Translations under genes and position numbers: made by a program
Shown: positions 2,426 through 36,167 of the stretch, piece after piece
Position numbering within the stretch: the first letter of the stretch is position 1
Layout of the letters: each line of letters starts with the position of its first letter
Notes under the pieces: generated by a model
Told to the model about the DNA's origin: nothing
The model's input: only the letters and a program-made list of their open reading frames with translations
Databases searched by the model: none
From: Escherichia coli
GTDB taxonomy: Bacteria > Pseudomonadota > Gammaproteobacteria > Enterobacterales > Enterobacteriaceae
Strand: one strand, 5' to 3'
NCBI RefSeq assembly: GCF_003018255.1
Contig: NZ_CP027440.1
Length of the DNA stretch: 64,000 bases

Positions 2426-3916
2426 TTAACTTTTGGTTTTGACTAAATCGTTTTTGGCGCGGCCAAATGGCACGGCACCGCTAAATGGTTTGCCGTCGAT
2501 AGCGTCATGAGTACGCAATGCTTCCGGGCGCAGCCAACGCTGAACGCGGGAAGGCATATCCAGACCAATCAGCAGGATCACCACAAATGTCAGACTGAAC
2601 GAGAGCGATGCCAGCGCAGTACCCAGATCCAGACGTTGAGCGATCAACGCGCCGATGATTGGGGCCAGTGCACCGCCCAATGCGCCGACGTTGTAGGTAA
2701 AGCCCAGGCCCGCTGCACGCTGGTCGGTATCGAAATAACCGCCAATCAGTTTCGGTAAGATCCCGGCGATCCCTTGTCCAAGCATTTGCTGGAAGAACAG
2801 TAACAGACCGAGCACCCAGACGTTTGCGCCGCCAATCGCAAATACCGGAATAATCAGCAGCTGCGAGGCCAGCAGACTACAAACGTACGCTTTGCGGGTT
2901 CCCAGCCAGTCACCGAGGAAGCCACCGACGCAGCACCCCACCGCCGCGCCAAAGCCACTAAAGAACAGCACATTGGCGACAGTATGCGGGTCATAAGCCA
3001 GATCGGTTTTCAGATACGTTGGCAGCAGCGCCTGAATCGGCCATGAGTAGAGGAAAGCAAACAACACGACCACCATCAGCATTACGCCCGTTGGCCAGCG
3101 TTTGCCCGTACTCTGCACCATAAAGCTGATAAAGATTGCGGCGCATAACAGCCCGAGTACAGCGACGATTGCGGCATTTTGCAGGTTACCGGCGAAGCAG
3201 AACCACAGCGCAGTAGCCGCCGCCAGCGTCATTACGATATTGGCAATGCGATGTTCACCACGGTAAAGAATGTCTACCATCGTGCGTACTGGTGCTTTAC
3301 CCCCGTGTTTCTCTTTCCAGTCTTCCGCTTCCGGGATGTTTTTACGCAGCCAGAGAGCAAAGATGATTGGCAAAATGCCGATAAAGAACAGCGCTCTCCA
3401 GCCCCAGACCGGAACCACCAGACTATAGACCTGAGCGGCAACGACGGCCCCCACAGAGAAGCCTGAAATCAAAAAACCACTGGCTTTGTTACGCAGATGT
3501 TTTGGCCAGCTTTCAATGACATAGGTGGCGCTGGAACCGTATTCACCCGCCATCCCCATGCCGATGACCAGACGCGCGATAAACATGGTGATGTAGCCTG
3601 GCGCAAAGCCGCAGGCCAGCGTCCCGGCCGAGAAGAGAACGATGCTGGTGACCATTGCCAGACGACGCCCGTAGCGGTCACCCATAGCGCCGAGCATCAG
3701 GCCGCCGAACCAGCGAGAGATAAAGGCTGCGGAGATCAGACTTGCCGCCTGCACCGTCGTCAGCCCGAATTCACCCTGTACTTCGGTGAGTACCAGGGCG
3801 ATTAAAACGAAATCAAAACCGTCAAGCAGATATCCCAACCAGGCAGCGGAAAATGCGCGCCATTGTGCACGGTTGAGATGGCGATACCACGGGATATTCT
3901 GGGTTGTAGTACTCAT
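2426..3916 (-). CDS. nanT: Sialic acid transporter (MFS)
   Basis: Trimmed to [14 protein letters not shown]... (496 aa); matches E. coli NanT. Confidence 0.9.
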
Positions 3917-3986
3917 TGTGAGTCTCCCGCGGTGGGCGATGCCCACACGCTTTGGTATGAAAATTGTAGGGTACAGATGCGTTTAT

Positions 3987-7622: not shown

Positions 7623-8120
7623 TTACTTCACAACGCGTAATGCCGGTCGACCACCGCGTGGTGGCTGCGGAGGTTCATCGTCAGGATGAGTGTCATCATC
7701 GTGATCTGGCTTGTCGCCATCAATAACCGACATAACGGTTTCGTTGTCTGCCGATGCCTCTTCATCATTCATGATGCTGGCATCTTCATCGTAGGCAGCT
7801 TCAGGTTCAAACATCGTGCCTGCGCCATTTTCACGGGCGTAGATAGCCAGCACGGCAGCCAGCGGCACAGAAACCTGACGCGGAATGCCACCAAAGCGCG
7901 CGTTAAAGCGCACCTCATCATTCGCCAGTTCCAGATTGCCGACAGCTCGCGGCGCAATGTTGAGTACGATTTGCCCGTCACGCGCATATTCCATAGGAAC
8001 CTGCACGCCAGGGAGCGTCACATCCACCACCAGGTGCGGCGTGAGCTGGTTATCCAGCAACCACTCATAGAATGCACGCAGCAGATAGGGACGACGTGGT
8101 GTTAGCTGTGACAAATCCAT
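7623..8120 (-). CDS. sspB: Stringent starvation protein B (ClpXP adaptor)
   Basis: 165-aa ORF matches E. coli SspB. Confidence 0.9.
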   Translation of the reverse strand: MDLSQLTPRRPYLLRAFYEWLLDNQLTPHLVVDVTLPGVQVPMEYARDGQIVLNIAPRAVGNLELANDEVRFNARFGGIPRQVSVPLAAVLAIYARENGAGTMFEPEAAYDEDASIMNDEEASADNETVMSVIDGDKPDHDDDTHPDDEPPQPPRGGRPALRVVK

Positions 8121-16517: not shown

Positions 16518-16882
16518 TCTCTGCCCCGTCGCTTCTGGCGGCGGGGAAAATGTTGCTTTTCCCTCTCACCCCCCCTGCTTTCTCCTGCGATTAATTTAAC
16601 GAATAGTGCGTTTTATCGCGACATATCATTCACATAATGAATACATGGGTTAAAAAAAGCACATTATGCAAAATTCATTATCTAATTGAAAAGAATAGAA
16701 TTAATAATAAATAATCGTGTTTTTAATTCTTTTTTGTTATTAAAACTCACATTTTTAACACTTAGTATCAACTGAAACAGTTAGCGTGGTATTAATTAGT
16801 TCAATAATTAGTGTATACTTGATTTTGTGATATGGGTCACGAAACAAAGGCCCAGCTAAAAGATTATGTCGAGGTAAAAATC

Positions 16883-17146
16883 ATGAAAATCAAAACCACT
16901 GTTACTGCATTAAGCGTACTTTCTGTTCTCTCTTTCGGTGCATTCGCTGCCGACTCCATTGATGCTGCACAAGCACAAAATCGTGAAGCAATCGGGACCG
17001 TATCCGTAAGTGGTGTGGCGTCTTCGCCAATGGATATGCGTGAAATGCTGAACAAAAAAGCGGAAGAGAAAGGCGCAACGGCCTACCAGATTACTGAAGC
17101 TCGTAGCGGTGACACCTGGCACGCTACGGCTGAACTGTACAAATAA
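16883..17146 (+). CDS. yhcN: Periplasmic stress-induced protein YhcN (DUF1471/YdgH-BhsA family), signal peptide
   Basis: Trimmed to ATG at 16883 (GAGG upstream) giving MKIKTTVTALSVLS... Confidence 0.85.
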   Translation: MKIKTTVTALSVLSVLSFGAFAADSIDAAQAQNREAIGTVSVSGVASSPMDMREMLNKKAEEKGATAYQITEARSGDTWHATAELYK

Positions 17147-17173
17147 ACCCTCATCGTCTTGTCCGACGATATT

Positions 17174-17197
17174 GCCCCCGGTTCGGGGGCTTTTTTT
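17174..17197 (+). terminator. Intrinsic terminator after yhcN
   Basis: GCCCCCGgttCGGGGGC hairpin followed by TTTTTTT. Confidence 0.65.
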
Positions 17198-17200
17198 GCG

Positions 17201-17473
17201 CTAATGACGAACATTAAAACGCAAATGCCCTTCCAGCTCTTCCTCTGCCTCATCAAACAGCAATATTAACGCGCCAAAACGGCGACGCGTTTTCTCTCCC
17301 AGATGAACAAATTCAATCTCAAGTGGTAGCGGCAGGACATCGTTCATTAACACATCCCATAGTGAGTCGAGATCGCGTACCTTATCTTTCGCCAGACCAA
17401 AGGCTTGGCTGAAGTCGCGATAAAAATCCTCCTGACTCTCAATCTCATCAAAATCAAAGGTATAAATATTCAT
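17201..17473 (-). CDS. yhcO: Barstar-like putative RNase inhibitor
   Basis: 90-aa acidic ORF matches E. coli YhcO. Confidence 0.8.
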
Positions 17474-17564
17474 CTGTTGCCACCGTCACGTTTCACGGCG
17501 AGTTCTGCCGTTCATCGCTAAGTATAGCCATGAAAAAACCGACGCTTCGGGCGTCGGTTTTGAC

Positions 17565-19532
17565 TTAACTATCGGTCAACGCATGTTGATACTTATGGAG
17601 CATCCCCGCCAGCCGATGAACCGGTTCCGTCACCTGCGGTGGCGCTTGCCAGATGCGTAGCTTTTCCTGGTAGATTTCAAGTTCTTCCAGCAACTGGCCA
17701 AAGTACCGACGACGTTTATCATCGCTACGGGCAGATATCACATGGTCTGCTGTGCGGCGCATTTGTCGGTGAAACGCCGATAAATCCTCGTTAACCGGGA
17801 TCGGCGCATCACGCAGGCGCTGGTGCGCGATAATCATCGTCAGCGCCAGGCGAAATTTCGGCAAATCCCCTGGGAACTTATTCATCAGCAAAAACAGCTG
17901 CTGATAAAGTGCCGGGAGGTGATTCTCTTTACGACGTGCCACATTGGTAGTCATCGCGGAAACAGCGGCAGAAACAAACTGATTAAGCAGTACACGTCCA
18001 GTCCTGTCGCGCGATTTATCCCGCACCAGCAAAATAACGGTGAACGCGAGCACACAGCCGACGATTTGCCCTAATGCGCTGTCGAGAAACTGACTGAAAT
18101 GGAAAGTCATCGGGTTATCCAGCACGATAATATTTATGGTGCTGGCCAGCGCCCCCATCGAGCCCAGTCGCCGTTTCTGTACTTCTATACCGAGGAAAAA
18201 TCCCAGCACTGCCAGGCTAATACACAGCAATAACATGCTTTGTTGGGTATTAGGGATAATCACCAAAAAGTAGAGCAGCCCTAACGGCAGCGCCGCCAGC
18301 GTCCCATAGATAAAGTCGATCGCCACCATGCGTGGATTCGGCAAACGCATTGCCAGTGACGTCACGACCGCAATCATCACCATTGCACCACTGCCGGAAG
18401 TCCAGCCCGTCCACAGCCAGAAAAGCGTCCCCAGAATGCAGGAAAGTGTGGTTCGCCAGAAGTTAACCATCGCATGATGACGTTCGGCTGACTCTACTTT
18501 GACTTCCGGTTCGCCTTGCAGGATCTCTTCTTCAGTAGCGTTGATTTTTGTGTTACTGATAACGCCGCGCTTGAGAAGCTGATAACGCGTTGCCGCCGCG
18601 ACCCAGCTATAAATGGTGACAGGCGTTTCCCGTTCCCCGGTCCAGGCGATAACTCTCCGCAGGCGTTTGAGCTGCTTGTGGACGTCCTGCGCGGTTTCTA
18701 CCGGCGTGTCAAAAAATTCGCGGAAAGTATCAGTGATCAATTCCGGGCGCGTATTCTGAATAAGATAAGTTTCGCAGGATTGGGTAATCAGCGTCAGCGA
18801 TAGCGTATTGATCGCTTTTAAACGTCGATTGGCCCGCGCCCAGCGGGAAGATTCCATATTCAGGTTGCTGCGCATACCTTGTAACGCCGTGGTGCGTCGC
18901 ACCAGATCGCCCCAGGCTTTATCGACAACTTCACCATCGCCATGTTTGATACAGAGTTGCATTAATTGATATTGCGCGACCAGCAAACTTTCCAGCTCTC
19001 GATCCACTTCTTGTTTGATCGATCGCGGAGAAAAGAGCAAATCCGCCATAATCGCACACACAATACCGATAACGATCTCGCTACAACGTTCGACGGCAAA
19101 CTGCGGCGTAAGCAATGGTTCCGGCTGAATGGTGATCACAATGATCAGCGCGGTATAACCGGCCAGCCCCCACGCATACGAGTTTTCTATTCGTACCAGC
19201 GAGGATATCCAGGTACAAAAACCGGCCCAGATACAGCACACCAGAATCATCAATAATGGTGCGCGGATCATCGCAATGATGATTACCAGTCCAGCAATAC
19301 AGCCAATAAATGTGCCGATGATGCGCAAAAAGCCACGATAGCGAATAGCGCCAGAATACGGTTCACCTCCCGCAGCAAAGGCCGGACCGGCGGCAACAAT
19401 CGCCGCTGTCAGTACCGCCCAGCGTGGCGTTTCCAGCTGGAAGTGAAAGCCAACAAACAGCGCCAGTACAATGGCGGTCGCCAGTTTTACCGCAAAGCGA
19501 ATATGTTGATTAGCAATGGAGAAAATACCCAT
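17565..19532 (-). CDS. aaeB: p-Hydroxybenzoic acid efflux pump subunit AaeB
   Basis: 655-aa membrane ORF matches E. coli AaeB. Confidence 0.9.
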
Positions 19533-19537
19533 CGTGA

Positions 19538-20470
19538 TTAACCAAACTCACGCAGGCGATGGGCCATTTTACGGAAGAACGAATCCTGGCTTTCGTCGCG
19601 ATCTTGTTTGCCAGTGACCACCACTGTAGCAGTGGTGCCCGCAGGCCAGATGTTCTCTTGCTGGTTGTCGAGACGAATACGTACCGGAACACGTTGCGCC
19701 AAACGTACCCATTCAAGGTTAGAGTCGATGGTCGCCATCCCTTTGTCGTCACGCGTGCTGCTGGCGTTGGTGACCCCTGCGGCAACACTATCAACAGTCC
19801 CTTTCAGCACTTTGTTACTGCCAAGCGGCGTGATCTCCGCACGATACCCAGGGCGCACCCCTTCCAGCTTAGTTTCTTCCATATAGGCCAGTACATAGAA
19901 GGAGTTCTGTTTCACCAGCGCAACCGCCGTTGATCCTCGAGTAATAAACTCACCGGTATAGACGTTGAGGTTGGTCACCCAGCCATCTGCTGGCGCGCGG
20001 ATGACTGTACGTTCAAGATCCAGTTTTGCCAGATCACGGGTCGCCTGCGCTTTCGCTAACTGATGCAGAACCGTTTGTAGTACGTTGTTGGCCTGATCGA
20101 TCTCTTCGCGAGACATCGCCTGCACACCGAGACGGTTACGACGTCCTGCCTCCTGGCGTTTCTCCTGTGCCAGTACCTGATAATAAGCAACATCGGCTTG
20201 CGCTTCCTCAAGCGCCTTTTGATAGCGCGGCTGGTCGATGGTGAACAGTACCTGTCCTTTTTTCACCAGCTGGTTATCATGAACATTCACCTGGGTAATG
20301 AGTCCAGAAACGTCCGGCGCGATCGCAACGACGTCAGCGCTAAAGCGCGCGTCACGCGTCCACGGGGATTCGGTGTAATAGACCCAGGCATTAAAAATTG
20401 CGATGAAGGCCAGAATGACTAATACGACCGTGATGGCCGTACGGGAGAATTTTCTTATTAGTGTTTTCAC
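19538..20470 (-). CDS. aaeA: Efflux pump membrane-fusion subunit AaeA
   Basis: 310-aa ORF matches E. coli AaeA. Confidence 0.9.
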
Positions 20471-20477
20471 TTCAACC

Positions 20478-20681
20478 TCAAACGAACAGTCGCGATATCA
20501 AATAAAACAAGCAGCAATAGAGCGCGGTGTTGAACAACGCCGGATGCCAGACAAAGTCGTAGATACCTGTTGGCACAAGTACCCGGCGCACCAGCCAGAA
20601 AATCGCCAGTGATAAAAGCAATTCAAAAAATATCGGTGGGAAGGACAGCCCAAACACCACGATAACGGGAAACAGACTCAT
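20478..20681 (-). CDS. aaeX: Small membrane protein AaeX
   Basis: Trimmed to [16 protein letters not shown]... (67 aa). Confidence 0.75.
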
Positions 20682-20863
20682 GTTGACCTTGGTTGTATAG
20701 AGAGAGCAGGCGTTATTATTTTCAGCATCTGTCGCCGCAGAGAAGGGCATGGAAAGCCGGGCGAGAGCAACATTGCTGTAGATTGATATTTAATATATTA
20801 GCGTAACTGTTATGCTGTTATCTATATTATGTGATCTAAATCACTTTTAAGTCAGAGTGAATA

Positions 20864-21793
20864 ATGGAACGACTAAAACGCATGTCGGTGTTTGCCAAAG
20901 TAGTTGAATTTGGCTCTTTTACCGCCGCCGCCAGACAGCTACAGATGAGCGTTTCGTCCATCAGTCAGACGGTGTCAAAACTGGAAGATGAGTTACAGGT
21001 AAAGCTGTTAAACCGTAGTACACGCAGCATTGGCCTGACTGAAGCCGGCAGAATTTACTACCAGGGCTGCCGTCGGATGCTCCATGAAGTGCAGGATGTT
21101 CATGAGCAACTGTATGCCTTCAATAACACCCCCATCGGGACGCTGCGCATTGGCTGTTCTTCAACTATGGCACAAAATGTTCTCGCCGGGCTGACAGCAA
21201 AAATGCTGAAAGAATACCCAGGTTTGAGCGTCAATCTGGTTACCGGAATTCCTGCCCCCGACCTGATTGCCGATGGTCTGGATGTGGTGATCCGCGTCGG
21301 CGCGTTGCAGGATTCCAGCCTGTTTTCCCGCCGTCTGGGCGCGATGCCGATGGTGGTGTGCGCCGCGAAAAGCTATCTCACACAATACGGCATACCGGAA
21401 AAACCCGCCGATTTGAGTAGTCATTCATGGCTTGAATACAGCGTGCGGCCCGACAATGAATTTGAACTGATCGCACCGGAAGGGATCTCGACTCGCCTGA
21501 TCCCACAAGGAAGATTTGTGACTAATGATCCGATGACGCTGGTGCGCTGGCTGACGGCGGGTGCCGGGATCGCCTACGTGCCGCTGATGTGGGTGATCAA
21601 CGAGATCAATCGTGGGGAACTGGAGATCCTGCTGCCGCGTTATCAGTCAGATCCACGCCCGGTTTATGCGTTATATACCGAAAAAGATAAGCTGCCGCTG
21701 AAGGTACAGGTCGTGATCAACTCGCTGACGGATTATTTTGTTGAGGTCGGTAAATTGTTTCAGGAGATGCACGGGCGCGGGAAAGAGAAGTAA
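20864..21793 (+). CDS. aaeR: LysR-family activator of aaeXAB
   Basis: 309-aa ORF, divergent from aaeX; matches E. coli AaeR. Confidence 0.9.
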   Translation: MERLKRMSVFAKVVEFGSFTAAARQLQMSVSSISQTVSKLEDELQVKLLNRSTRSIGLTEAGRIYYQGCRRMLHEVQDVHEQLYAFNNTPIGTLRIGCSSTMAQNVLAGLTAKMLKEYPGLSVNLVTGIPAPDLIADGLDVVIRVGALQDSSLFSRRLGAMPMVVCAAKSYLTQYGIPEKPADLSSHSWLEYSVRPDNEFELIAPEGISTRLIPQGRFVTNDPMTLVRWLTAGAGIAYVPLMWVINEINRGELEILLPRYQSDPRPVYALYTEKDKLPLKVQVVINSLTDYFVEVGKLFQEMHGRGKEK

Positions 21794-21920: not shown

Positions 21921-23381
<1,461 letters not shown>

Positions 23382-23413
23382 TTAGTTACTGCAGTAGAGG
23401 ATTTTTTACGGCT

Positions 23414-23447
23414 GCCGGATGCGGCGTGAACGCCCTGTCCGGCCTAC
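23414..23447. repeat. REP (palindromic unit) element between yhdP and tldD
   Basis: GCCGGATGCGGCGTGAACGCCCTGTCCGGCCTAC closely matches the REP/PU consensus. Confidence 0.75.
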
Positions 23448-23521
23448 GGTTATGTTCTGGCTCGTTGGCCTTTGGCAACGATTATCCTATGAGATTGGGG
23501 CAATTACGCGCCCTCGTCAAA

Positions 23522-26500
23522 TCATTGCGCTTTTTCTTTACGCGGTTGTCGCAACACTTCGTTGATTTGCGGATCGTCCAGCGGACCCGAAATGTGATAG
23601 CGCAAAATGGAGACTTTGCTCCACAGCGGTCCCAGCACTTTACTGGCGGCAAACACTGCCGCGCCAACAATGGGGTTAACCGCAAAGGCCGCAGCCACAC
23701 CCACCGTCGCAGAAATCTCTGGTGCGACAACCGCTTCCATATTCAGGTCGCGACGTACCAGATTTACCGACCCTTTCATAGCGATGTCCGCTTCCAGGCC
23801 ATCCACCAGCGTGTCGTCGGTGTGCATAACGCCGTCTTTAATCCACGCGGTGCTGCGAATGGAGTCAAAATAGAACCCTTCGCCAAAAGTGTCTCTGAAA
23901 TCAAAACGCAGCTTACGCATCAGGGCATCTACGCTCAATAAGCGCAGCAATTGCCCGGCATGTCCGGTATTGATTTCGGTAATTTCGCCTTTACCCAGTT
24001 GAGTATGAATGATGCCATTCAACGTCGCCTCATCTGGTTGCCAGGGTGCTTTGCGCCAGTGTAAATCGTAATCCACATTAAATGACGACTGGCGTATGGG
24101 CGTCGTGACACCAAAAAATTCTGCGGCGGCATCAATTTTCTGCCCACGCAGTTTTCCTTTCAGCGAGGTGCGTTCATTCCCCGGATTGTTAACCCATTCA
24201 CCATCGGCAGTGAGCCGCGAAAAACCAGTATCAATCAGTCCATTAGTCAGCGTTAATGTATTGCCAGAAATGGTGATATCACTGTCAATGCGCCCGAATT
24301 TTTGCCCCCAGAACCAGCACTCTGCGCATCGTATTTGTGCGTCCGGCCAGCCACGGAAGCTAATGCGCTCCGTTGTCGGGAAAGGTGATGAATTCGTTGA
24401 GTCACCATGAGTTTTCGCCACGCTTGGGTTGTAATAAAGATATTTGATATTCGCCAGCCACGGCGCGTTATTACGCATCGCCAGCGTGGCGTTGATTTCA
24501 CGCCCTTGCGCCTCAACCAGGGTGCCATTTGCCGTCGGTTGCGAAACAATGCTCAGGTTATTCCATTGCTGATTTCCCAGCGACAACATAGGCGTACGTA
24601 ACGTTATGTGTTGTGGGAAACTCGCTGCACCACCGACACTCTCCGCAGCGCCTTTCTGGAACAGGGCCAGCCACTCGGCACCATTCATCGGCGGCATATT
24701 GAGTTCAACGCCACTTTGTTCCGGCAACGGCGGGAGCGTTTTACTGTCTGCCGCCCAAATAGCACGGTCGAGCGTCAGCTTTTGACCGAGCAACCAGCGG
24801 CTATTGAAATGGTTATCTGCACCAGCCTGTCCGGTTAACTCAAAGCTGTTGAGATTGCCATCAACCTTAACGTTTACCGGCAGTGGTTCACCCGCAGGTT
24901 TGGCTAACGGTGAAGGTAAGTGACTGCTCACATTCTTCAGGTCGCCGTTCAGCTCTACGTTATAGGTCGCGCCAGCATGATAAGGCAGATCAATGCCCAC
25001 TTTACCATCCCACGCCACGCTGCCACTTAATGCTTCGTTCACCGCTTCAGGCAGAACGCCGGTTTTCGCTGGTTGCCAGTTACCGTTGAGATTCACCGCG
25101 ACCTGGTAGGCTTTTGCCCCTTCTTTGGTGGAAAAATCCACGTTCAACGGCTGATTAAACCAGCTTGCTGTCAGTGGTTCACTTTGCAGATCGCCATTGA
25201 TAAAGCTGAATTTACCGCTCAAATTTTTCAGGGTGCTGTCGAGTGGTTTGATAAACAGACTGTTATTACGCAGCGTCACATCACCTTTCGCGGTTACCAG
25301 TTCGCCGTTCAGCGGGATATCAAGATGTAAGCGAGCATTCACATCGCCGTCGAGCTGGAGTTCTTGCAGGGTCGCACCCAGAGAATCTTTCAGCGGTGTC
25401 TCATCAAAGTAAGGGCCAACGGCTTTACCCGGACCTTTAATGTCAGCGTCAATCAGCAGTTTTTCTTTTGAGTAGTCAGGGATCACTGCGGTGAGATTAC
25501 TTGCGCGCACGCCGCCCAGATTAACGCCATCGGTTTTCATCCATAAACCGTCGTTAATAAAGTCCAGTTCAATATCAAGGTTAGTTAATGCAGGCCAGTC
25601 CGGCTGGAAGGCAAACTTCGCGTTGCGCAGCGGTACCAGCACTTCAAACTGACCTTCGTTGTGTTTATAGGGGAAGAGTTGCGGATTGCCACCATAAACC
25701 AGCGTCGCGTTATCCGCTTCACCGCCCTGAATCGCGCCACTTAAGTAATCAACCAGGTCTTTACCCATCAAGTTTTCCGGGAAATAGCGCCAGGCTTGTG
25801 AACCATCATCGGTACTGATGCCAGCCAGAATACCCAGCCAGGGTTCATCGTTAGCTGGTTGCAGGTAACGAAAACCGCCGCGCGCATGGACGGCTTTGGC
25901 TTTAACGTCAATATTACGCCCATCCAGCTGGAAACCTTTGTCATTGTTCAGCCAGCTTATCGTTGCCTGGCCGTCGGCGATTTCCAGTGGCGCACGGAAT
26001 ACCGTTTCGTAAGGCATCTTTGCCTGCTTCATCGACGCAGTAAGCAAACCATTTTCTACGCTGCCGGAAAGCGTCCCGGAGAAGTGTTCCGCACCCGGTA
26101 ATAATTTCCATTGCTTCCAGGCCAGATCGCTCCACGATGCCTGAAAACGGGTCTTGTCTGCCGCCTGAAGCGGGATATCCAGCGCCAGCGTGTTAATCTT
26201 GCCGCTCGGTTGTGTGGAGCGCCAAACATCACCCAGTGCAGGTGAAAGTTTCGCGGCCAGCGGGCGTATGCCCTCCAGGCCTGCCAGCTCCAGATTACTG
26301 GCGCGAATCCGGAGTTCGTCACTGCGTTTATTGTCTTTGCCGCCAACGTCCTGTTCCGGTATCCAGGCCAGCGTCAATGCTCCGCTCGGCCAGGGTTTGC
26401 CGTCCATCGTGATCCGTGTATCGGGAATAGAGAACTGCCAGCCTGGATTTTCACGCGTAATATGCGCGGTCAGATTATCCACCGACAGCGTATGCGTTTG

Positions 26501-27322
26501 CTTCTCGCCCAACCAGCTGGCACCGCCCTGTTTCAGCCAGACGTCACCGCCGGTTACATCGCCTTTGTCGATCGTCATCCAGCCTTCAAGGGAGAACTGT
26601 GCCGTTTCCAGCGCAATATTGTCCTGCATCCATTTACCGAGCCACGGCTTCAGGTCGATGTCATCCGCCTGGAGCCAGACGCGACCATTGCTTAACAACC
26701 CCTCATCATCGCGCAAATCCATGCGCACCTGCATCACGCCGTGCTGTCCGGTAAGGCTGGAGAGGCTTACCTGGCCTTCTGCACGGTGTCGACGTGGATC
26801 GTTCAGCCAGGTGAGCTGTGGGATCGCCAGCTCGGCGCGCTGACCGGATGGCGTCAGGAAACTGACTTCACTGTCGCGGAGATCGAAATGGTCGAACTGA
26901 CGAAGAAACAGATCGCTGATGTGACTGGCTTCCAGACTATCATTACCACCGCCGCTGGTGATAGGAGTGTTGGTGCGAAAGCGCAGCTGCCAGAAAGTGA
27001 GGTCGCGAAACTGCCAGCGCATATGTAACAGGCTCTGCCAGACATCCAGCGCCAGAGTAACGCGTTTAACCGAAAATTCGCCGCCATCTTTTAGTTCTGC
27101 ACGGATGTCGTGCGCTTCAAGCGTCGGACCAAAATTCTGCCAGCTGGCTGAGAGCTGACTGGCTTCTACCGGCATGCCAGTCGCGGATTCTATTTTGTTG
27201 AGGATTTCCGGACGCCAGGCGTCAAGATGCGGTAAAGCAATACGCAGGCCGCTAACCAGCAGGGCAGCGATCACAACGAGCGCGGCTCCAGTAAGCAGTA
27301 AAATCCCCGGCAATCGCCTCAC
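23522..27322 (-). CDS. yhdP: AsmA-like envelope protein YhdP (phospholipid transport to the outer membrane)
   Basis: 1266-aa ORF with N-terminal membrane anchor; matches E. coli YhdP. Confidence 0.9.
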   Translation of the reverse strand: MRRLPGILLLTGAALVVIAALLVSGLRIALPHLDAWRPEILNKIESATGMPVEASQLSASWQNFGPTLEAHDIRAELKDGGEFSVKRVTLALDVWQSLLHMRWQFRDLTFWQLRFRTNTPITSGGGNDSLEASHISDLFLRQFDHFDLRDSEVSFLTPSGQRAELAIPQLTWLNDPRRHRAEGQVSLSSLTGQHGVMQVRMDLRDDEGLLSNGRVWLQADDIDLKPWLGKWMQDNIALETAQFSLEGWMTIDKGDVTGGDVWLKQGGASWLGEKQTHTLSVDNLTAHITRENPGWQFSIPDTRITMDGKPWPSGALTLAWIPEQDVGGKDNKRSDELRIRASNLELAGLEGIRPLAAKLSPALGDVWRSTQPSGKINTLALDIPLQAADKTRFQASWSDLAWKQWKLLPGAEHFSGTLSGSVENGLLTASMKQAKMPYETVFRAPLEIADGQATISWLNNDKGFQLDGRNIDVKAKAVHARGGFRYLQPANDEPWLGILAGISTDDGSQAWRYFPENLMGKDLVDYLSGAIQGGEADNATLVYGGNPQLFPYKHNEGQFEVLVPLRNAKFAFQPDWPALTNLDIELDFINDGLWMKTDGVNLGGVRASNLTAVIPDYSKEKLLIDADIKGPGKAVGPYFDETPLKDSLGATLQELQLDGDVNARLHLDIPLNGELVTAKGDVTLRNNSLFIKPLDSTLKNLSGKFSFINGDLQSEPLTASWFNQPLNVDFSTKEGAKAYQVAVNLNGNWQPAKTGVLPEAVNEALSGSVAWDGKVGIDLPYHAGATYNVELNGDLKNVSSHLPSPLAKPAGEPLPVNVKVDGNLNSFELTGQAGADNHFNSRWLLGQKLTLDRAIWAADSKTLPPLPEQSGVELNMPPMNGAEWLALFQKGAAESVGGAASFPQHITLRTPMLSLGNQQWNNLSIVSQPTANGTLVEAQGREINATLAMRNNAPWLANIKYLYYNPSVAKTHGDSTNSSPFPTTERISFRGWPDAQIRCAECWFWGQKFGRIDSDITISGNTLTLTNGLIDTGFSRLTADGEWVNNPGNERTSLKGKLRGQKIDAAAEFFGVTTPIRQSSFNVDYDLHWRKAPWQPDEATLNGIIHTQLGKGEITEINTGHAGQLLRLLSVDALMRKLRFDFRDTFGEGFYFDSIRSTAWIKDGVMHTDDTLVDGLEADIAMKGSVNLVRRDLNMEAVVAPEISATVGVAAAFAVNPIVGAAVFAASKVLGPLWSKVSILRYHISGPLDDPQINEVLRQPRKEKAQ

Positions 27323-35522: not shown

Positions 35523-36167
35523 CCATTTAGCAGGGAATAATAAGAGAGGGAACTCATTTTGAAATCATTATTCAATCGGTTAACGGGAAAAGCGGTTAGC
35601 CGGACAGCTTTCGTCGAACATCTTGGTCATGAAGTTGTACAACATCATCCAAACTGGAAAGTCATGATTTCGACTGACCATAAATTGATGCGCATTGATG
35701 CTCCACCAAACAGCCATTATTGATACGCCTCCGTCGCCTGTTAGGTTTATGGTGTTTTGCCTTGGCGACGCTACGCTTAATCTGTTACTGATTTCTGGTA
35801 CCATGGGGGGAATAATCTGATTTTATTTGATTGCAAATTAACCACTTAAACCTATTGAATGCGGAACATTGTCAGTCGGTTAATTTTGCGTGCTTTAGCA
35901 TTCACATCTTTCCGGACGATGCAGTGAAAATTGCGTAATCCTCAGCAACCGCTGCGTAATGTCGTCTATCTTGTCGCGATCCTGGCATCCCTACATTATT
36001 TGTGGTCTGTGAAGATTATCTCATTGCAGCCCCTCATCTTCGCAGGGCTGGCTTTACAGCTTTTCACCCTACGTTATAAGAAGTTCCGTCGATGATGGCG
36101 CTAATTTCGTGAATTGTGCGGCTTGTTGCAAATTACACGGTGTTGAAGGTTATTTACATGTTAGCTG

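Follow-up and report, generated by a model that had tools for sequence, protein, structure and literature searches.

YhcO, a 90-residue protein of the barstar (ribonuclease inhibitor) fold, is encoded by yhcO, a gene lying between yhcN and aaeB in the 64,000-nucleotide stretch of Escherichia coli DNA analysed here (contig NZ_CP027440.1; referred to below as the window), with no ribonuclease (RNase) gene beside it. Our comparisons indicate that yhcO is very probably the inhibitor half of an ancestral Enterobacterales operon for a secreted RNase and its barstar, from which the RNase gene was lost. Taking this origin together with signs of an altered target, we consider YhcO to be a domesticated former inhibitor (probability about 0.6), and neither a decaying relic nor one half of a split pair. 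Databases already list the gene, its family and its structure; what is modestly new is the origin of yhcO as an orphan and its remodelling. A literature search found no paper joining yhcO with barstar or accounting for its orphan state, and the papers naming yhcO either give expression data only or deal with an unrelated Bacillus yhcO; its function is called unknown.

YhcO is a member of the Barstar family

The yhcO open reading frame (ORF) runs for 273 bp from ATG to TAG (Table 1). In an E. coli chromosome that is 100% identical over 901 bp (window positions 16700-17600) it is annotated as yhcO, 'barstar family protein', and the gene coordinates of this matching record agree with the ORFs of the window over the 50 kb compared. 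In a profile search YhcO scored 38.6 bits with the Pfam Barstar model (PF01337; cut-off 23.4, E=1.1e-9). Searches of NCBIfam, PHROGs and PADLOC matched nothing to YhcO, and NCBIfam has no equivalog model for the protein. YhcO is identical at 89 of 90 residues to PDB entry 2CX6 (E. coli YhcO), in which the molecule is named 'Hypothetical protein yhcO' under the title 'Crystal structure of ribonuclease inhibitor Barstar', and it is 76% identical to the Salmonella protein of PDB 5F4C. An AlphaFold 2 (AF2) model of YhcO (predicted local distance difference test score, pLDDT, of 94) superposed on 2CX6 with a template modelling (TM) score of 0.99 and on barstar (1BRS chain D) with a TM score of 0.80, a root-mean-square deviation of 2.0 Å and 20% sequence identity. 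The barstar alpha/beta fold, with three parallel strands and four helices, is present in 2CX6, 5F4C and the AF2 model alike. The claim of an earlier sequence-only reading that YhcO has the barstar fold is therefore borne out by profile, crystal structures and superposition, and the structural comparison with barstar that it proposed had in effect already been answered experimentally by 2CX6, with which the AF2 model agrees.

By homology YhcO is a member of the Barstar family, as the hidden Markov model, the fold and the DxxxD/W/E core all agree; DxxxD is the signature given for Imm-Barstar by Zhang 2012 (PMC3482391). With the Bacillus amyloliquefaciens barstar of 1BRS it shares its length, the helix-2 motif L-D-x-L-W-D, an equivalent of E76, a cytoplasmic location and the lack of a signal peptide. 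It differs from that protein in having no partner RNase found in the genome and in a one-residue insertion after the W44 position, an insertion found in the orphans generally. Two traits of functional barnase-barstar systems, an adjacent RNase and a conserved rim around the binding core, are lacking in YhcO.

Relatives of yhcO at the same locus are linked to a secreted RNase

A search with YhcO of 1.84 billion cluster representatives gave 111 clusters at E<=1e-3. The close homologues, 74-100% identical to YhcO, are those of Escherichia, Salmonella, Citrobacter, Leclercia, Lelliottia and their relatives, and the next-nearest, from Xenorhabdus, Pragia and another Enterobacterales contig, are 41-45% identical. 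The barstar genes of these next-nearest relatives lie a few bases 3' of a PF00545 'Ribonuclease' gene, with yhdP, a CN-hydrolase gene and tldD directly before the pair, a neighbourhood shared with yhcO.

Gene order was mapped by tblastn with reference proteins at at least 80 genome loci, one genome per species, plus 10 others, and the group counts given here (orphan, Yersiniaceae-type and other) refer to the matches listed in that scan. All Morganellaceae and Budviciaceae loci mapped have the order yhdP-CN hydrolase-tldD-RNase-barstar-darP, the aae cluster being absent. The order in the Yersiniaceae sampled (Serratia, Yersinia, Rahnella, Ewingella, Rouxiella, Chimaeribacter and Edaphovirga) is tldD-aaeR-aaeXAB-RNase-barstar-darP-pmbA, with barstars 50-57% identical to YhcO, and the order in Hafniaceae is RNase-barstar-darP. 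Leaving aside Hafnia psychrotolerans (see below), the RNase gene is directly 5' of the barstar gene in all 25 loci of the Yersiniaceae type, and aaeR, aaeA and aaeB are upstream in 23 of them. The orphan order, tldD-aaeR-aaeXAB-yhcO-yhcN-argR-mdh without an RNase gene, was found in 15/15 orphan loci, which include E. coli, Salmonella, Enterobacter, Lelliottia, Klebsiella, Kosakonia and Erwinia mallotivora. Enterobacteriaceae thus differ from the Yersiniaceae arrangement by exactly the RNase gene together with a rearranged downstream flank, which makes the Yersiniaceae arrangement the key intermediate. The breakpoint of the rearrangement is marked by yhcN: darP and pmbA stand at the RNase-linked loci where yhcN and argR stand at the orphans. 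The idea that the aae cluster had replaced the RNase gene was rejected because Yersiniaceae carry both aaeRXAB and the RNase.

The positional orthologues of yhcO in Serratia marcescens, Yersinia pestis, Xenorhabdus and Pragia (44-57% identity) have in common with YhcO the acidic core and a C-terminal block starting RRFGA(L/I). Unlike yhcO they are translationally coupled to a secreted RNase, and their rim reads F-G-x-N-L-D-A-L-W-D..T-G. The distance from RNase stop to barstar start is mostly -4 to +20 nt. Of 68 RNases compared, 67-68 retain the equivalents of the catalytic barnase residues K27, R59, E60, E73, R83, R87, H102 and Y103, and 65 have an N-terminal hydrophobic signal. Judged by their sequences, the upstream RNases are true barnase homologues and look active. 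Across the wider family as scanned, Bacteroidota and Firmicutes loci included, the paired RNase-barstar state is universal but for a Bacillus pumilus locus (see below).

Several loci in this collection call for separate comment. In Enterobacteriaceae bacterium LUAb1 an RNase-barstar pair lies beside MbeD/MobD-like and resolvase genes, which suggests that some Enterobacterales barnase-barstar pairs are carried on mobile elements. The RNase-barstar locus of 'Enterobacter cancerogenus' M004 is nearly identical in protein and context to those of Erwinia sp. S63 and Pantoea sp. alder81, and the strain is probably misnamed or its assembly mixed. A 241-bp scaffold of Corynebacterium lipophiloflavum encodes E. 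coli YhcO (98% identity) and a 422-bp contig of Hydrogenophaga intermedia encodes a protein identical to Klebsiella pneumoniae YhcO; both are almost certainly enterobacterial contamination of those assemblies. One metagenomic protein of 255 residues (P0213) has an ordinary FG-N barstar domain (residues 173-251) fused to an unrelated N-terminal region of 170 residues.

The partner RNase was probably lost from the yhcO locus

The orphans form one clade (54/60 neighbour-joining bootstraps) nested within the syntenic RNase-linked barstars. Their identity is 53% to the barstars of Yersiniaceae and 35% to other types. With E. mallotivora YhcO as the query, the orphan type proved to be general in Erwiniaceae (Erwinia, Pantoea, Mixta, Winslowiella and Paramixta; 65-82% identity). 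Since the Erwiniaceae orphan occupies the same aaeB-yhcO-yhcN locus, the loss of the RNase would predate the split of Enterobacteriaceae and Erwiniaceae.

Hafnia psychrotolerans (NZ_BMFZ01000012.1, positions 7770-8000) carries tldD-aaeRXAB, a 58-codon RNase remnant and an intact barstar gene. The remnant keeps the signal region and the C-terminal sequence (GRRGTDRVLFASDG...VRVE, then stop), whereas the catalytic core is deleted, some 75 central residues and the His102 segment being gone. The barstar at this locus is still of the ordinary FG-N type. From its sequence the locus reads as one where the RNase was lost recently and independently while the inhibitor stayed. It is also the only real remnant found by tblastn at E<=10 across all orphan loci and the whole window, where nothing else rose above noise; in the spacer between aaeB and yhcO no RNase remnant was detectable.

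These data indicate that the partner RNase was lost and, as far as nucleotide-level searches of E. coli genomes reach, did not move elsewhere, and that the loss is old and recurred independently. In the ancestral chromosomal operon the gene for a cytoplasmic barstar would have come a few bases after that for a secreted barnase-type RNase, and the RNase gene would have been deleted once, before Enterobacteriaceae and Erwiniaceae diverged. Descent of yhcO from the inhibitor half of such an operon is the part of our account in which we place most confidence.

The RNase-binding core of YhcO is kept and its rim is remodelled

YhcO was aligned with barstar in a set of 15 orphans and 70 RNase-linked relatives ranging from Bacillus to Bacteroidota. 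Residues D36, W39, D40 and E75 of YhcO correspond to D35, W38, D39 and E76 of barstar, and they are invariant in 15/15 orphans and 70/70 linked proteins. The rim residues K31, V32, D34, S37 and M43 correspond to barstar Y30, G31, N33, A36 and T42. In barstar numbering, the linked proteins have F or Y at position 30 (70/70), G31 (69/70), N33 (70/70) and A36 (70/70), whereas the orphans have K or Q at position 30, V at 31 and S at 36 (15/15 each), and D or N at 33 (D in 10/15). Position 42 is T in 66/70 linked proteins and T, M, V or I in orphans. Residue by residue, barstar Y29, Y30, G31, N33, A36, T42, G43 and W44 become D, K, V, D, S, M, N and D in YhcO. Erwiniaceae orphans show the same trend (x-[I/V]-x-D-L-D-[S/D/T/N/G]-L-W-[D/E]), and V32 and S37 are invariant within Enterobacteriaceae. 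Because the replaced rim residues are themselves conserved in Enterobacteriaceae, the change resembles the adoption of a new optimum and does not resemble drift. The sequence-only reading had not foreseen this remodelling of the RNase-contacting rim.

Several of the altered positions belong to the published interface. In the crystal complex the polar contacts to barnase are made by barstar N33, T42, G43, W44, Y29, L34, D35, D39 and E76 (PMC4207830 Table 1), and the contact from the N33 N-delta to the His102 carbonyl is among the most persistent between the two proteins (PMC4207830). The divergence of the orphans is also visible in profile scores. A profile built from outgroup RNase-linked barstars only gave 114-124 bits for Yersiniaceae and Hafniaceae barstars and 75-102 bits for orphans, with no overlap. 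With Pfam PF01337, two RNase-linked barstars scored 57.8 and 58.8 bits and two orphans scored 39 and 31. Identity to outgroups is 44% for the orphans and 53% for the sister lineages. The lower value for the orphans points to a burst of substitution along their stem branch. The stem-branch changes would comprise F/Y30 to K, G31 to V, N33 to D or N, A36 to S, a relaxed position 42 and the one-residue insertion, and the substitutions would be concentrated in the rim that touches the His102/Tyr103 region of the RNase.

The substitution patterns may mean that the target of YhcO has changed, a reading that we hold tentatively, at somewhat below even odds. YhcO may still act in the manner of barstar, placing the acidic face of helix 2 (D36 and D40, with W39) and E75 into a basic phosphate-binding cleft, on a target that would no longer be the lost cognate RNase. 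Possible, though doubtful, is the more specific proposal that the rim was reshaped for a new partner, an unrelated endogenous RNase or basic nucleic-acid-binding protein, so that YhcO would serve as an RpoS-controlled inhibitor or nucleic-acid mimic in stationary-phase or acid-stressed cells.

yhcO is under purifying selection and is expressed

Of 5426 complete E. coli genomes, 5425 carry the yhcN-yhcO-aaeB' segment, as a rule in a single copy. Pairwise Nei-Gojobori estimates of the ratio of nonsynonymous to synonymous substitution (dN/dS) were 0.147 for orphans (interquartile range 0.12-0.20), 0.118 for Yersiniaceae barstars and 0.170 for Xenorhabdus/Photorhabdus barstars; within Escherichia the value for yhcO was 0.04-0.05. 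Across 13 Enterobacteriaceae YhcO sequences, 51 of 90 residues are invariant. The gene is under purifying selection, as are the partnered barstars, and is no decaying relic. Such selection would have held it since the changes on the stem branch.

Published data place yhcO among regulated genes. It is strongly RpoS-dependent in O157:H7 (PMC2907692), it is induced after an acid shift (PMC2270276), and it is bound and activated by LldR (PMC10272880). An LldR-box-like sequence, cttTcGcCaGACCAaag, reported from genomic SELEX (gSELEX) for the yhcO/aaeB region (PMC10272880), corresponds to window positions 17388-17404, which lie inside the yhcO ORF and not in the upstream spacer. The coding sequence (CDS) is clear of both neighbours, with no overlap. 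Taken together, yhcO is an expressed core gene and no chance ORF. The sequence-only reading had suggested a relic immunity gene, and this holds for the origin, since syntenic orthologues in four families lie 3' of a secreted RNase gene; it does not hold in the sense of a decaying leftover, given a dN/dS of about 0.15 in a core, RpoS-dependent gene.

A candidate sigma-S-type -10 element (CTATACT) lies 47 nt 5' of the yhcO ATG. A scan for sigma-70 consensus promoters found nothing upstream of yhcO, and CTATACT was found by eye and by pattern search. The same heptamer is present 5' of yhcO in two other E. coli loci, Salmonella, Enterobacter sp. R1(2018) and three Klebsiella loci. After the loss of the RNase, yhcO would be transcribed on its own under sigma-S control. 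CTATACT also occurs 5' of the RNase gene in about 10 Yersiniaceae loci; because the spacing there is different, we do not claim it as the promoter of the ancestral operon.

Alternative explanations for the orphan inhibitor

The main rival explanation is that YhcO is still an inhibitor of the barnase family and gives standing immunity against foreign RNases, whether those secreted by Serratia, Yersinia, Proteus or Morganella or those delivered by the type VI secretion system (T6SS), Rhs or other polymorphic toxins. We regard this as unlikely. Barnase-type RNases are widespread in co-habiting Enterobacterales, barstar D35, W38, D39 and E76 have invariant counterparts in orphans, and the strong conservation of YhcO shows that it does something. 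However, the rim that accompanies this core in the linked proteins has been replaced (F/Y30, G31 and A36 in 15/15 orphans, N33 by D in 10/15), and there is no sign of an arms race, dN/dS being low and the gene single-copy, fixed in position and outside islands. Secreted RNases, moreover, do not enter the cytoplasm unaided. Tox-Barnase domains do occur in toxins of the type II, type VI and type VII secretion systems and in TcdB/TcaC, MuF and PVC toxins, across many phyla and with gamma-proteobacteria among them (Zhang et al. 2012, PMC3482391), and Imm-Barstar is called specific to Tox-Barnase and is linked also with Ntox21 (PMC3482391). At the yhcO locus, by contrast, the setting of a polymorphic toxin is absent: the neighbours are yhcN, aaeXAB-aaeR and tldD, with no Rhs, CdiA or T6SS gene adjoining.

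Further evidence bears on the same explanation. Cytoplasmic barnase kills E. coli, a species that always carries yhcO, unless barstar is co-expressed (PMC8403359, PMC8625414). In laboratory conditions YhcO, unlike barstar, appears to give no protection from barnase; this evidence is indirect, as yhcO may be weakly expressed during growth. A tblastn search of 72,556 plasmid records found RNase homologues in 59: those of Bacillus, Clostridium, Aerococcus, Acetoanaerobium and Tsukamurella, and two Proteus records of 4 Mb, in fact chromosomes. A tblastn search of 50,697 phage records found no RNase homologue; on enterobacterial plasmids and in phages there was thus no barnase homologue. Two Erwinia genomes carry both systems. 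Erwinia endophytica (RQVV01) has yhcO at the aae locus on contig 54 and an RNase with its own barstar on contig 3, and the Erwinia metagenome-assembled genome CAJYIY01 shows the same double carriage on contigs 94 and 98. The separate barstars adjoining the RNase are 34-40% identical to YhcO, and Erwiniaceae RNase-barstar pairs lie in contexts unrelated to tldD/aae. Since an Erwinia with its own RNase relies on a separate adjacent barstar, retention of yhcO is independent of such an RNase and YhcO is not its dedicated inhibitor.

According to a second explanation, the pair has been split, with YhcO the dedicated inhibitor of a cognate barnase-type RNase encoded elsewhere in the E. coli genome; we consider this very improbable. 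At the barstar locus of Bacillus pumilus the tblastn map shows no RNase gene alongside, a hint that unlinked pairs may occur. A blastn search in distant mode with two enterobacterial RNase genes found no match in 5,426 E. coli genomes, a whole-genome search that covered the nucleotide level only. The named organisms among the best 120 of 1,549 RNase homologues were Xenorhabdus, Photorhabdus, Yersinia, Serratia, Erwinia, Pantoea, Hafnia, Morganella and one 'Klebsiella pneumoniae', with none from Escherichia, Salmonella, Citrobacter or Enterobacter. E. coli K-12 is not known to have an annotated PF00545 protein. The 'Klebsiella pneumoniae' RNase was rejected as an Enterobacteriaceae RNase, as it lies on a 5-kb contig with its own barstar of the Pantoea/Erwinia type. 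The suggestion that YhcO protects against a toxin encoded elsewhere accordingly finds no support for E. coli in the genome, plasmid and phage searches, and the Erwinia RNases have barstars of their own; the check for a barnase-like RNase in E. coli that went with it came back empty at the nucleotide level.

That yhcO is a functionless leftover ORF kept by chance or by constraints from its neighbours might be read from papers that report no phenotype or partner and from the missing NCBIfam model, and it is effectively refuted by the selection data (dN/dS of about 0.15 across genera and 0.04-0.05 in Escherichia; 51/90 invariant residues; retention across Enterobacteriaceae and Erwiniaceae), by regulation through RpoS, acid and LldR and by the lack of overlap with adjacent genes.

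Features of the yhcO region in the window

The features of the region are given in Table 1. The sequence-only reading had found no RNase or toxin gene among the neighbours of yhcO, and this proved correct, yhcN encoding a DUF1471 protein and aaeB a FUSC-family protein. It extends further: the annotation of window positions 1-50000 includes no toxin or secreted RNase, and tblastn with six RNases found no barnase-like sequence in the whole window (best E=0.19, which is noise). The hairpin after the aaeB stop is a probable aaeB terminator that would separate yhcO from the aaeXAB transcript. It was not returned by the terminator scan, probably because the A and T runs were counted as stem.

Table 1. 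Positions of yhcO and surrounding features in the window
Feature	Position	Strand	Basis or remark
yhcO CDS, barstar-fold protein	17201..17473	-	ORF, Pfam, PDB, alignment, AF2 model
aaeB-yhcO spacer, 91 bp	17474..17564	-	'Empty site' where Yersiniaceae hold a 150-160-codon gene for a secreted barnase-type RNase
CTATACT, putative sigma-S-type -10 element and promoter	17521..17527	-	Context GGCTATACTTAG
GC-rich hairpin CCGACGC/GCGTCGG between A and T runs	17533..17561	-	Right after aaeB stop; read from sequence
GC-rich hairpin and T run, terminator-like	17174..17190	+	Scan; between convergent yhcN and yhcO
Second terminator-like hairpin	17152-17171	-	Scan
yhcN, periplasmic DUF1471 stress protein	16883..17146	+	NCBIfam stress_YhcN; convergent with yhcO
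aaeB, FUSC-family protein	17565-19532	-	
aaeB, aaeA, aaeX (-) and aaeR (+) efflux cluster	17565..21793	-/+	
tldD and yhdP	21921..27322	-	Conserved synteny anchors linking yhcO to RNase-barstar pairs of other Enterobacterales

Further observations concern the neighbouring genes. The mechanical ORF for yhcN starts at 16832 (104 aa) and the RefSeq/NCBIfam start is 16883 (87 aa); the 17 additional N-terminal codons (16832-16882) are probably untranslated. The number of DUF1471 copies beside yhcO is one in E. coli, two in tandem in Salmonella, Klebsiella and Enterobacter, and three in Erwinia. Between aaeB and yhcO some genomes have an insert of about 1.5 kb with an aldehyde dehydrogenase gene (PF00171; for example at 2506-3960 of locus L006), namely those of Enterobacter, Lelliottia, Kosakonia and part of the Erwiniaceae; the insert is lacking in Escherichia, Salmonella and Klebsiella. 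Elsewhere in the window, positions 35708-36095 between acuI and accB hold a truncated pseudogene of YedZ (MsrQ), the heme-binding sulfoxide reductase subunit, according to the matching RefSeq record.

Discussion

The evidence assembled here favours a history in which yhcO began as the inhibitor gene of an RNase-barstar operon, lost its RNase and was retained with an altered binding rim. YhcO would now be a cytoplasmic binder, induced in stationary phase or under stress, of another basic RNase-like or nucleic-acid-binding partner.

Several points weigh against this account. The residues chiefly responsible for binding barnase (barstar D35, D39, W38 and E76) are all kept, and the mutagenesis work of Schreiber and Fersht reportedly shows an affinity of barstar so high that a protein with an altered rim could still bind barnase-type RNases tightly. 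The case for an altered target is drawn from substitution patterns, and the view that the changed residues face the RNase comes from published polar contacts together with the alignment to barstar. The toxicity of barnase in E. coli may reflect only low yhcO expression in growing cells. The dN/dS values are pairwise and near saturation (dS of about 1.3), and the comparisons between groups are phylogenetically non-independent. Finally, the timing of the loss is approximate, and the sample contained no Pectobacteriaceae.

Comparison with known systems helps to place yhcO. The Imm-Barstar immunity proteins (PMC3482391) belong to the same superfamily, and the same logic of an inhibitor without its toxin would apply if yhcO were an orphan immunity gene. 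Unlike them, yhcO has no toxin cassette beside it, is a fixed core gene and is under purifying and not diversifying selection. Orphan cdiI/rhsI cassettes and solo antitoxins are alike in that the protector outlives the toxin, and loss of the toxin with the inhibitor kept is seen twice here. They are, however, usually strain-variable, arranged in arrays and subject to fast turnover, whereas yhcO is stable across two families and its rim is remodelled. This stability, together with the remodelled rim, points to domestication over stockpiling.

The practical stakes are modest under either reading of yhcO. The gene is a still-uncharacterised core gene of E. coli and Salmonella within the RpoS stress regulon, and its history is now testable: the rim analysis names residues for mutation, and natural comparisons are offered by the RNase-barstar pairs of Serratia and Yersinia, the Hafnia psychrotolerans remnant and the Erwinia genomes with both systems. 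If YhcO still blocks barnase-type RNases, yhcO would be an unusually ancient and fixed orphan immunity gene. If its target is instead a new one, YhcO would offer a clear example of host physiology taking over an immunity protein.

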